Source: Escherichia coli
GTDB lineage: Bacteria; Pseudomonadota; Gammaproteobacteria; Enterobacterales; Enterobacteriaceae
DNA: 64,000 nucleotides
NCBI RefSeq assembly: GCF_045037415.1
Contig: NZ_CP173438.1
Strand: one strand, 5' to 3'
Shown here: positions 28,918 to 32,115 of the stretch, piece after piece
How the letters are laid out: each line of letters starts with the position of its first letter
Position numbering within the stretch: position 1 is the stretch's first letter
Translations under genes and position numbers: made by a program
The notes under the pieces: generated by a model
Seen by the model: only the letters and a program-made list of their open reading frames with translations
Database searches by the model: none
What the model was told of the DNA's origin: nothing

Positions 28918-28969
28918 ACCTTACCTCATCAATCGCTTATCGTTATATGTTGTGTTGTGCACATCTATC

Positions 28970-28995
28970 CGTTTAGACGTCCAGATGTAAAGATG
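28970..28995. promoter_or_regulatory. MetJ operator (met boxes) of metF promoter
   Basis: tttagacgtccagatgtaaag contains AGACGTC met-box repeats upstream of the metF start. Confidence 0.6.
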
Positions 28996-29216
28996 AAGGA
29001 AAAGCCGAAGGGCGTCAACCGAAAAATAACCAATGATGGTGAGGAAAAATCAGGGAAGATGAAAAAAACTCATCTTAATTAGAGGCGATAAAAGATTTCT
29101 CTATAGCGCAATCCACCTCGCACGTTTTGACTCATATTCTGACAACACAGCGACACCTGGGCTAATTCGAAAAACAACGTCCTGCCACCGGATGGTGATG
29201 TTAAGGCATCTGATTC

Positions 29217-29238
29217 GGCCTGCGCCCTCGCGTAGGCC
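29217..29238 (-). terminator. imperfect hairpin downstream of the nucleotidase-like gene
   Basis: ggcctgcgccctcgcgtaggcc, 8-bp stem with one mismatch, about 60 bp beyond the minus-strand stop at 29299; no clear U-tract. Confidence 0.3.
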
Positions 29239-29298
29239 GAATACAGGATCTGCGCAATCAACGGGTAACAAACAGTTGAGTCAATTCAGTGCGCACTT

Positions 29299-30852
29299 TT
29301 ATTTGATATCCTTCACGCGCATACCGTTGAGCTGTTCATCCGTAATGGTGTTGCCCGCTTTGAAGTAATCAACCACCGCGTGATAAACGTAATAACCGCC
29401 CGTTGTGTTACGCGCTTTCCCTTCGGTAAAGGCGGTAAAACCATCTCCACCATCAGCAAGGAAACTCTGAGTAGCAATGTGATAAACCGTCGCATCTTCA
29501 ATGGGTTTGCCATTCAAAGTCAGTGTGATTACCCGCTGACCAACCGGCCTGTTGCTGTCGTACTTCATTTCCAGGCCTTTCGATACCTGTAAAACGCCAT
29601 TGCTTAAACTTGCGCCGTGTTCCATCAGACTGCGTAATTGTTTACCCATGAGTTCCATCGTCACCAGTTCGTTGGGGAACGGAAACGTACTGATGACGCC
29701 GCCCATCGTGATCGCCCCTGCGGGGATCTCATTGCGGATACCACCAGAGTTTGTTAACGCCAGTTGGGTGTTTTTACCCGCCGCTACCAATAAAGCGTCA
29801 GCCGCCAGGTTCCCGAGGGAAGCCGATTCACCATAGGCACGTTTTAATTCAACCGGCGATTGCGCCACCGTTTGTTGCACCACTTCATCAAGCTTTTTAT
29901 TCCAGCCGTCGATCACCTGTTTCGTTTGCGGATCGGGCTTCCACTCGTCAGCGTAAATGGTTTTAAGCTCGAAGTTTTTCACCGTAAAATTATGCGGCTT
30001 CTCTTTGTAGTCGAGAACCAGTTTGCCCACATCAATCCCGCCGCTGTCAGTGGAGAGGATGAGCGTATTGCCGACTTTAATCGGTTCCGGCGTACCCACA
30101 TGTGCATGTCCGGTGATCAAAATATCCAGCCCTTTCACCTGACTTGCCGTCTGAATATCTTTATCCAACGCGCGACGCACATCTGTGCCTCCCATACTGG
30201 ACTGGCGGGCTGGAACACCTTCGTGGATCAGGGCGACGGTCAAATCAACCTTGCCTTTGAGTTCATCGATATAACGTTGTAGCCATTTAATTTCATCGCG
30301 CGCTTCAATACCCACGCGCGTGGCAGCAGATACCGTATCATTAAAGGCAAATACTCCGTGCAAACCAATAACGCCTATTTTCACACCGTCTTTTTCGATG
30401 ATGGTATAGGGCTTATCCCAGAATGATTTACTGCTGTTCTGATAAAAAATATTGCCCTGCACAATAGGGAATTTTGCCTGGCTCAACTGTAATAATGTGT
30501 TGTCCCAGCCGTGGTCAAATTCATGGTTGCCTATTGTGACGGCATCAAACGGCATAGTATTCATAATATCGATAATAGCCTTACCTTTGGTCAGGCTGCT
30601 GATATATGGCCCGGTAAAATAGTCGCCCGCATCAAAAAACCATGTCGCTTTATTTTTTGCTTTTTCTTGCTTAACCAGCGTAGTGATATTTGCCCAGCCG
30701 CCAATATCCCGTTTACCGTCAGCGATCCACGGCACTTTATAAGGCTCGACATGTGCATGGAGGTCGTTGGTATAAATGATGGTGACATCTTTAGCGCAAG
30801 CCCAGAATGGCAGTGTTAATGCGATACCCGCAGCAAGTATTTTAATTTTCAT
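29299..30852 (-). CDS. secreted bifunctional metallophosphoesterase / 5'-nucleotidase-family protein (UshA/CpdB-like); not in K-12 at this position
   Basis: 517-aa ORF with signal peptide [20 protein letters not shown]; calcineurin-like motifs [38 protein letters not shown]; C-terminal half consistent with 5'-nucleotidase substrate-binding domain. Confidence 0.8.
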
Positions 30853-30984
30853 AAACAGTCCCTTTCAGTGAGATAAAGGATTGCTACATTACGTTCTGAA
30901 AGACTTATTTATGTGAGAGTAATCACATCCGCAGGGGATAGTTGCCGGACAAAATCAACGACCTTGTGAAATCGTTGGTGATAT

Positions 30985-32115
30985 ATGTCGACTCTGTTTA
31001 CGATTAATGCCTGTAAGTCGTTTGGTTGCCGTAATTTAGGGCAGCCAACATCGACAGATTATAGCTGGCCCGACTATCGACTGGGTTATCCGGCACTGCA
31101 CTGTCGGGCATGTGGCAGTTACCCGCCGTTGTTTGACGAGCAACAATTTCGTGACTGGTTGACAGTTCACTTATCTACTTTTGCAACAGAGAAAGGCCAT
31201 TTTTGCCCGGTATGTTATGGCACAGAGACGATTTGTTATGGTCACAATCCACAGGGTTCGCAACGCATTCAATGCCGTAACTGCAAAAAAGTATGGACAC
31301 CCAAACAATATCAGAAAGAAATAACGACTCCCGAAATAATCGAAACGGTTGCTTTGCTCGTGCCATTTCAGGGAGTCAGCAGCGGGCAGAAACTGTATGT
31401 TTTAATCAGTTTTGATGCTCTTCGCGGTAATATTCTTCATCTTTCTACTAATTACACGCAGCATCAGGCTGGAGAAAGTCTGCATTATCGATACAGAGGA
31501 AATGCAGAACCAGAGTTACACGACAATAATATTGTACAACGCGTTGATATGCGCGAAGCACAATTTCTACGCCGCAGTCAGTTTGATGAAATTCAGTATG
31601 GCAGCGCAGCGCTCAAGCGCAATGCCAAAGGCGCTATTCTGCGTCCGGTTATCACTGCACACGGGCATTTCAGAGTACTGAATATTTTATTCCCTACAGT
31701 AAAAACACATGTAATTTCACACGAGTGTTTTTTAAGAGGTGCCATTATTACGGCCTGGGCTGATCTGTTTCGCCAACAGCAAGGTGAAATTTGGTTTATT
31801 GAAGAGGAAATAGCTGACGATACCGATAATATGCCCTGGCGTTTTCAGGGAAAAACTTATCACGGCTGGTGGAAAAATCAGTGGCAACTCTGGGTTCAGG
31901 GAAAAAATCGTAAAATGGTATGTGCATTAACGGGCGGAAAGAGTAGCAAAGCAGAAATGCTCTCTTTAGCAACCAGCAGACATTTTATCGACTGGCTACA
32001 TAAACAAGCAGTATTTACTCACAGCGCCCCGCTTTCCGCAGGGCGCGTTACGCAAATACTGCTTTCTCTGGCTCAGGATTACAACAACTGCGCCAGTCGG
32101 TTAATATCCGACTGA
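30985..32115 (+). CDS. cysteine-rich zinc-ribbon protein, transposase-like N-terminus (IS1 InsA / IS1595-type zinc finger), C-terminal domain of unknown function
   Basis: 376-aa ORF; CxxC pairs at C10/C15, C40/C43, C74/C77, C97/C100; CPVCYGTETICYGHNPQGSQRIQCRNCKKVW parallels the IS1 InsA CPxC...QRYxCxxCxKxW pattern; hand-estimated GC near 42 percent; last 37 nt overlap the antisense metL 3' end. Confidence 0.65.
   Translation: MSTLFTINACKSFGCRNLGQPTSTDYSWPDYRLGYPALHCRACGSYPPLFDEQQFRDWLTVHLSTFATEKGHFCPVCYGTETICYGHNPQGSQRIQCRNCKKVWTPKQYQKEITTPEIIETVALLVPFQGVSSGQKLYVLISFDALRGNILHLSTNYTQHQAGESLHYRYRGNAEPELHDNNIVQRVDMREAQFLRRSQFDEIQYGSAALKRNAKGAILRPVITAHGHFRVLNILFPTVKTHVISHECFLRGAIITAWADLFRQQQGEIWFIEEEIADDTDNMPWRFQGKTYHGWWKNQWQLWVQGKNRKMVCALTGGKSSKAEMLSLATSRHFIDWLHKQAVFTHSAPLSAGRVTQILLSLAQDYNNCASRLISD

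Follow-up and report, generated by a model that had tools for sequence, protein, structure and literature searches.

In eukaryotes, there is ample documentation of DDE transposases exapted as host regulators; to our knowledge such cases have rarely been documented in bacteria, where the recent case of TldR involves TnpB. InsA, encoded by IS1, is a DNA-binding repressor. TldR proteins are nuclease-dead, RNA-guided repressors derived from TnpB, and act as transcription factors beside their target genes in Enterobacteriaceae (bioRxiv 10.1101/2023.11.30.569447). The region between metL and metF has been catalogued as GR31 in strains of extraintestinal pathogenic Escherichia coli (ExPEC), where it was proposed to serve coordinated nucleoside degradation and transport; the published gene list holds the island nucleotidases and Tsx, and omits the zinc-finger gene (PMC12928451). 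Here, we analyzed a 64-kb stretch of E. coli DNA (the window) in which metF and metL are separated by two genes, one for a secreted nucleotidase-family protein and, divergent from it, an open reading frame (ORF) for a cysteine-rich protein of 376 residues, which we call REG. Gene content, junctions, distribution, fold, loss of the DDE residues, purifying selection and linkage are what the analysis shows. The explanation that we narrowly favor is that the module is a reduced form of an old enterobacterial unit that scavenges extracellular nucleotides, that REG is an exapted transposase serving as regulator of the pathway, and that K-12-type genomes lost the module by deletion. Taken by itself, the regulatory role of REG, drawn purely from context, seems to us just short of an even bet. 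A preliminary description of this DNA had matched the pairing of the two genes to no module that it could name; we found no description of the pairing either, and the sole paper that we found on the site is the one that omits the zinc-finger gene.

The two genes and the parts of REG are as follows.

29299-30852, minus strand: 517-residue nucleotidase-family ORF (ORF list)
30985-32115, plus strand: 376-residue cysteine-rich ORF (ORF list) encoding REG, a zinc-finger/RNase H-like protein, apparently transposase-derived and without a DDE triad (ORF, profile and structure-model evidence)
31012-31113, plus strand: zinc module 1 of REG (Cys10, Cys15, Cys40, Cys43), the four cysteines being 92–94% conserved in 51 family members
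31204-31284, plus strand: zinc module 2 of REG (Cys74, Cys77, Cys97, Cys100), a zinc ribbon of the InsA or IS1-IS1595 type (NCBIfam, Pfam and hhalign)
31336-32109, plus strand: RNase H-like domain of REG, approximately residues 118–375, with conserved R197, H228, H246, E247, W296, W300 and N367

REG belongs to a small family (119 representatives at 50% identity among 1.84 billion proteins). Residue conservation was taken from an alignment of 51 members, in which R197 and H228 are invariant and H246, E247, W296, W300 and N367 nearly so. Searches of REG against Pfam, NCBIfam, PHROGs and PADLOC returned weak zinc-ribbon matches at most. No Pfam family covers the protein; residues 74–105 weakly resemble IS1/IS1595 zinc ribbons, and the NCBIfam models NF050000 and NF033558 matched residues 74–122 at E = 2e-4. 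The PADLOC defense models matched neither REG nor the nucleotidase. A sequence search of the PDB with REG alone gave nothing; the family profile matched C2H2 zinc fingers alone, which we read as artefacts of the cysteine pattern.

Profile comparison links REG to IS1. The family profile aligned by hhalign with residues 4–87 of IS1 InsAB' (zinc ribbon and helix-turn-helix) at a probability of 96.5% (E = 9e-10), and Zn_ribbon_InsA (PF03811) was matched by 8 of 51 members at E ≤ 1e-3, with InsA zinc-ribbon matches found in 8–21 of the 51. REG has the InsA-type N-terminal Cys4 zinc ribbon of an IS1 transposase, homologous to that of InsA, followed, as in InsAB', by an RNase H-like domain; long relatives of REG also align through the InsA helix-turn-helix. 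By contrast with IS1, REG has no DDE triad, no helix-turn-helix and no detectable match to InsB, it carries an extra N-terminal Cys4 module, and its gene is single-copy, chromosomal, free of terminal repeats and syntenic with metabolic genes. REG scored 21.4 bits against the IS1 transposase model, for which the cut-off is 100 bits, and covered model positions 1–48 of 199; the long relatives cover positions 1–85 of 199, and family scores range from 21 to 38 bits. In public databases family members are named 'cytoplasmic protein', and the 440–510-residue forms of Vibrio and Photobacterium 'IS1 family transposase'. Long members bear the latter label in Proteus and Serratia too, and two others are called 'lactate dehydrogenase'. 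Since the match of the long members to the IS1 model ends at position ~85, these labels are likely mis-annotations.

The AlphaFold model of REG is very confident (pLDDT, the predicted local distance difference test, 94.6; pTM, the predicted template-modeling score, 0.93). It contains a three-layer alpha/beta core in the order beta1-beta2-beta3-alpha-beta4-alpha-beta5, and this RNase H-like domain is closest to DDE transposases and integrases; Foldseek against the PDB placed it at superfamily level only, together with PIWI and EndoV. When hhalign was run against a single InsAB' sequence, the InsA part alone was aligned, with no InsB match for the C-terminal domain. A by-eye likeness to InsB (SFDALRGNILHLS versus AYDRLRKTVVAHV; THVIS versus LHVIS) had no statistical support and was not used. 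No conserved acidic DDE triad (beta1, beta4 and the following helix) was found in the 51-member alignment: there is no conserved acidic residue in beta1 (118–127) or after beta4 (217–222), and the only acidic columns are 144 (75%), 201 (86%) and 247 (100%), the IS1 DDE positions having been mapped onto REG by eye from secondary structure and not by superposition. Mobile-element traits (terminal inverted repeats, target duplication, multiple copies) were absent from the REG gene at this locus, and the gene occupies a median of one place per genome. Because REG lacks the acidic triad, scores low against the IS1 model, is single-copy and evolves under constraint (ratio of nonsynonymous to synonymous divergence, dN/dS, of 0.08–0.17), it would not be a live transposase. 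Together these observations indicate that REG descends from an IS1-like transposase, has been maintained, is not mobile and is altered in its catalytic residues. By analogy, its nearest bacterial precedent is TldR: that protein, RNase H-like by its RuvC domain, comes from a transposon, is catalytically dead and has been co-opted as a regulator. The ancestor of TldR is TnpB/RuvC, however, whereas that of REG would be an IS1-like DDE transposase; and TldR uses a guide RNA, whereas the window locus yielded neither an RNA family nor a conserved non-coding RNA (an Rfam scan of 27700–32300 returned no known RNA).

The REG gene is maintained under purifying selection: its low dN/dS (~0.1) holds even where dS exceeds 1. 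These values bear on the notion that the ORF is a functionless, decaying insertion-sequence relic kept by chance beside the nucleotidase gene. REG orthologues do share only 58–64% of their residues with REG, versus 87–91% for the nucleotidase, and some copies are truncated or interrupted: strain AVS0456 has an IS1A element inside the gene, and S. arizonae and Kluyvera gave partial matches. Nevertheless, a relic would hardly keep such dN/dS values over dS > 1, an intact frame of 371–391 residues across genera, a fold predicted with high confidence, or the cysteines and the His/His/Glu/Arg residues conserved down to 20–25% identity, and we give this explanation almost no credence.

The case for a dedicated functional partnership rests mainly on gene neighborhoods: the linkage persists across sequence divergence and genomic context. 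A one-genome-per-species scan seeded with 12 closer family sequences, and hence sampling Enterobacterales only, returned 39 loci, all from that order. A nucleotidase gene lies divergent and upstream of the REG gene in all 37 loci for which upstream DNA was available. At least five unrelated chromosomal neighborhoods hold the pair, and more distant relatives of REG adjoin related genes.

Between metF and metL: the pair in Enterobacterales genera
Next to kdsA: the pair in E. albertii and some Escherichia
With an arylsulfate sulfotransferase (AssT-like): the pair in Enterobacter, Silvania and Pluralibacter (L005, L010, L026-L028, L031, L049)
Two other sites: the pair in Klebsiella sp. and Enterobacter hormaechei
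Beside a nucleotidase: relatives of 25–40% identity (L012, L062, L016), those in L062 and L016 at 25–35%
Beside a NupC-type transporter and a nucleoside phosphorylase: a relative of 25–35% identity (L013)
Beside a phosphorylase: a relative of 25–35% identity (L063)
Beside a Tsx-like channel and a sulfatase: relatives of 25–35% identity (L060, L064)

In E. coli RHB23-SO-C02 (L064, 3597–7245, dnaJ-nhaA), a REG paralogue of 414 residues and 25% identity ends a Tsx-like channel and sulfatase cluster; some E. coli have a cluster of this type between mokC and nhaA. A comparable cluster in L060, of Tsx, sulfatase and radical-SAM maturase genes, includes another REG relative. One branch of the family would therefore be linked to sulfate-ester rather than nucleotide scavenging.

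The partner of REG, the 517-residue protein, has a signal-like N-terminus, read from its sequence, and the two domains of a secreted UshA-like metallophosphoesterase (Metallophos, PF00149, at 5e-12; 5_nucleotid_C, PF02872, at 5e-38). It matches PDB 3IVD/3IVE, solved by structural genomics, over residues 19–517 (E = 0, 1117 bits), a stretch in which it is identical to 3IVD. It shares its architecture, a metallophosphoesterase followed by a 5'-nucleotidase C-terminal domain, with UshA, CpdB and NadN, but falls far under their curated equivalog cut-offs: it scored 151 bits against 600 for UshA, and lies below the cut-offs for NadN and CpdB too. Because of these scores, the protein is assigned by sequence to a separate subfamily of solved structure, set apart from UshA, CpdB and NadN. 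We take the crystallized protein to be c4898 of CFT073, with uridine and cytidine as its ligands. Literature searches on c4898 and 3IVD found nothing relevant, and no established substrates.

The two genes diverge from a short control region that is conserved across genera.

30853-30984, no strand assigned: divergent control region, 132 bp, 40% GC, conserved across genera
30862-30902, no strand assigned: inverted repeat CTTTCAG-N27-CTGAAAG, overlapping the nucleotidase ribosome-binding site and putative -10 element; a presumptive control element
30912-30927, no strand assigned: perfect palindrome TGTGA-N6-TCACA, the CRP consensus, the single occurrence in the window
30956-30977, no strand assigned: inverted repeat CAACGA-N10-TCGTTG, candidate operator, just upstream of the REG ORF

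The spacer is 131–138 bp long in most loci, with a mean column identity of 77% across seven loci and conserved blocks across 20. The palindrome TGTGA-N6-TCACA, which by the established consensus is a putative CRP site, lies ~67 bp from the nucleotidase start codon and ~65 bp from that of the REG ORF; its half-sites are invariant, its N6 is variable and its position is the same in the 23 loci scanned. This distance would suit class II activation by CRP of both divergent promoters, for which candidate -10 elements are TAATGT/TAAAGT (minus strand) and CAAAAT (plus strand). A simple promoter scan gave one site, fewer than in shuffled sequences. At the candidate operator, AAATCGTTGGTG is invariant in 20 loci. 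In the subfamily of 37–40% identity, ACTGA-N5-TCAGT replaces CAACGA-N10-TCGTTG at the same place; both arms have changed together, which looks like a compensatory change. As an RNA hairpin in the REG leader the repeat is not significant (z = -0.6), and a protein operator is therefore more likely. No k-mer of 8 nt or more is shared between this spacer and that of the next nucleotidase in the five-gene form of the island. The locus resembles the CRP/CytR nucleoside regulon (deo, udp, cdd, tsx, nupC, nupG) in having nucleoside-scavenging genes with a CRP consensus in the promoter, and a CRP-like site also lies upstream of the NupC-linked REG relative. It differs from that regulon in having no CytR-type (LacI-family) regulator or recognizable CytR operator at the window locus; the adjacent candidate regulator, REG, is of an unrelated and uncharacterized family.

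REG might instead be an enzyme: with the His/His/Glu/Arg cluster as its active site and the zinc fingers guiding it to its target, it would act in the cytoplasm as an RNase H-like nuclease or phosphodiesterase, with nucleic acids or nucleotides as substrates and a role in salvage. The fold matches PIWI, EndoV and NurA as well as transposases, the cluster is invariant (H228, R197) or nearly so (H246, E247), and some relatives are co-oriented with hydrolase genes across gaps of 11–22 nt (L016, L060). However, REG lacks the acidic triad that is canonical for RNase H-like nucleases, a cytoplasmic nuclease has no obvious role beside partners that are secreted or in the outer membrane, and the divergent layout with its conserved, palindrome-rich spacer is typical of regulator-target pairs. 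We regard an enzymatic REG as unlikely.

If REG is a regulator, the module could work as follows. The secreted nucleotidase would dephosphorylate external nucleotides outside the cytoplasm and so supply nucleosides for uptake. REG retains an InsA-type zinc ribbon and an RNase H-like core, with a second Cys4 module; the DDE residues are gone, as is the InsA helix-turn-helix in the enteric subfamily, and REG has ceased to be mobile. Within the divergent promoter region (132 bp), the targets of REG would be the conserved inverted repeats, and CRP would act together with it from the perfect consensus centered between the two genes. The former active-site pocket (R197, H228, H246 and E247) could perhaps sense a ligand, such as a nucleoside or nucleotide. 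The conserved divergent layout, the conserved and covarying palindromes and the homology to the DNA-binding module of InsA give indirect support to REG as a transcription factor.

Several points weigh against a regulatory REG. DNA binding by REG, and with it regulation, a ligand and dependence on CRP, is something that we infer from sequence. The InsA-like helix-turn-helix (InsA ~45–87) is present in relatives of 400–530 residues only and is a gap in the REG of the window. The palindrome TGTGA-N6-TCACA may belong to REG itself and not to CRP, no candidate operator recurs upstream of the other island genes, and the invariant His/His/Glu/Arg cluster could be a catalytic site instead of a sensor. 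REG evolves 4–5 times faster than its neighbors. Lastly, no published work on REG was found in the literature searched, including searches on STM4102-4104 and on InsA, nucleoside and Tsx topics.

A broader proposal is that REG founds an undescribed class of transcription factors derived from IS1-like transposases in Enterobacterales and Vibrionales, in which the dead pocket (R197, H228, H246, E247) senses a nucleoside or nucleotide and InsA-type zinc modules target palindromes of scavenging operons (nucleotidase, Tsx, NupC, phosphorylase, sulfatase) alongside CRP. We consider this proposal tentative, with the chances against it. The polymorphism of the locus and the nucleotidase are already known; REG as an exapted, DDE-less IS1-like protein with a family-wide linkage to nucleoside scavenging was not found in the literature searched. 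About a third of E. coli genomes carry the candidate, ST131-type and other ExPEC strains among them, and it occurs in Salmonella, Klebsiella and Citrobacter. A regulatory REG would explain how an accessory nucleotide-scavenging system is controlled in extraintestinal E. coli, would offer a tractable model of transposase domestication and would correct a recurrent annotation error. If REG is no regulator, the locus still shows plainly how a K-12 deletion can be taken for an insertion.

The surroundings of the module are as follows.

25518-27737, minus strand: katG (ORF list)
28027-28917, minus strand: metF, start at 28917 (ORF list)
28918-29066, minus strand: metF upstream region common to K-12-type genomes, 98% identical to the K-12-type genome L002; left edge of the variable segment
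29067-32078, no strand assigned: variable segment of 3012 bp, not in K-12-type genomes (junction mapping)
32006-32064, minus strand: strong stem-loop with 27-nt arms directly downstream of the metL stop, inside the 3' end of the REG ORF (RNA fold)
32079-32115, no strand assigned: convergent overlap of 37 nt between the REG ORF and the end of metL, the last nine codons (NCASRLISD) being metL antisense
32079-34511, minus strand: metL, followed by metB (ORF list)

Much of the preliminary description holds up here. It had put the metF start at 28917 and the metL stop at 32079, about 3.2 kb apart, and the ORFs lie so, with a gap of 3161 bp; metL and metF are indeed adjacent in the K-12-type genome, 348 bp apart. 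Likeness to K-12-type DNA stops at ~29066, ~150 bp upstream of metF, and restarts exactly at the metL stop (32079–32080), so that 3012 bp in the window stand against ~200 unrelated bp in the K-12-type genome, a net gain of ~2.8 kb, as had been estimated. Two divergent genes of the broad families it named flank a 132-bp AT-rich spacer, as the ORFs, Pfam matches and GC content bear out. Its remark that no tRNA, integrase or flanking direct repeats could be seen also agrees with our searches: no tRNA was found in 25000–36000, no direct or inverted repeats flanking the variable segment, and no integrase among the window ORFs at the locus. An attachment site, integrase and direct repeats, the marks of a genomic island, were not found at the locus. 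The region 28918–29066 is kept at 80–85% identity in Citrobacter, Kosakonia and Salmonella.

The claim that fell is the polarity: the DNA had been taken as newly acquired, and 1837 of 5426 complete E. coli genomes, as well as eight other genera, have the same pair at metF-metL. That count (34%) is of genomes with at least 80% of window positions 28800–32200. E. coli has three states at the site, namely empty, two-gene and five-gene. The empty, K-12-like state accounts for ~66% of complete genomes, the two-gene form with the window-type 3' part of the REG gene for 1180 of 5426, and the five-gene form for 659 of 5426. The latter spans 7.8 kb and adds two nucleotidase genes and a Tsx paralogue to the nucleotidase and REG genes; an O25b:H4-ST131 genome carries the two-gene form at 100% identity. 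GR31 (PMC12928451) shares its chromosomal site and first nucleotidase gene with the window, but is the five-gene form, with three nucleotidases and Tsx, whereas the window holds the two-gene form with a deeply divergent REG allele. Among the 39 loci of the cross-species scan, 24 have the pair flanked by both metF and metL, in at least nine genera (Escherichia, Pseudocitrobacter, Citrobacter, Kosakonia, Phytobacter, Klebsiella, Superficieibacter, Kluyvera and Salmonella), and some of the loci hold extra genes (LysR plus CMD, or mscS). The nucleotidase is 87–91% identical to that of the window across genera, close to the 90–96% of metF and metL. Because the arrangement recurs in so many genera and the nucleotidase has diverged nearly as metF and metL have, the module looks old at metF-metL, and the simplest history would be its loss by deletion from K-12-type lineages, which would also explain the missing tRNA, integrase and direct repeats. 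The preliminary description had itself allowed that its view would fail if the genes proved present and annotated in most E. coli, with K-12 carrying a deletion; the K-12 deletion largely stands, whereas the module is found in a minority of E. coli and the nucleotidase alone has been characterized (PDB 3IVD/3IVE).

The opposite history, a recent two-gene islet inserted between metF and metL and perhaps mobilized by its own transposase-like gene, would fit the many E. coli genomes that lack the module, the GC content of the segment, lower than that of its flanks (46.5% versus 52.3% across the whole window), the presence of the module elsewhere in the chromosomes of E. albertii, Enterobacter, Klebsiella sp. 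and Pluralibacter, and a REG gene that is mosaic between E. coli haplotypes. Nevertheless, the same site is occupied in at least nine genera, including Salmonella, Citrobacter and Klebsiella, the single-copy segment has no repeats, tRNA or integrase and its transposase-like gene no DDE triad, and plasmid and phage collections gave no convincing carriage, their matches being chromosomes or chromosomal contigs filed there. We consider recent insertion very unlikely.

The 37-nt antisense overlap of the REG ORF with metL had escaped the preliminary description. The family-conserved codons for ...YN367 (TACAAC) coincide with TTACAAC of metL in its stop region (32061–32084); the REG-metL junction would therefore lie at a microhomology, with the last nine residues of REG a fortuitous antisense reading of metL. 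Citrobacter REG orthologues overlap metL too, by 26 nt. In minus-strand RNA the stem-loop at the metL stop has a folding energy of -44.7 kcal/mol (z = -6.0) and is followed by a weakly U-rich tract, UUGUUUAUGU; it is probably the metBL terminator in the window haplotype. The K-12-type spacer (L002 1768–1966), ~200 bp, has no similarity to the module; it holds a GC-rich palindrome, gccggattcgtcgtaaacgcttaatccggc, and an annotated hypothetical ORF of 44 residues.

Some genomes carry two modules: E. coli SCPM-O-B-8794 (L022, L030), Escherichia sp. MOD1-EC7003 (L024, L050) and Citrobacter sp. wls619 (L041, L051). One module lies at metF-metL and the other beside kdsA or elsewhere, with three to four nucleotidases plus Tsx, and the two REG proteins are only ~70% identical to each other. 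Between the two-gene haplotype of the window and the five-gene haplotype of E. coli ATCC 25922 (L019), the nucleotidase gene and spacer are 98–100% identical (dS 0.04), and the REG gene (window 31000–32078) is 71–84% identical in nucleotides and 77% in residues (dS 1.0); the breakpoints lie near 31000 and 31300. This pattern indicates that the REG gene alone may have undergone recombination or deep allelic divergence between E. coli haplotypes. The window allele of REG is 95% identical to that of Pseudocitrobacter. In E. coli AVS0456 (L017, 3139–3836), the inserted IS1A splits the REG gene, a natural knockout in an otherwise identical locus.

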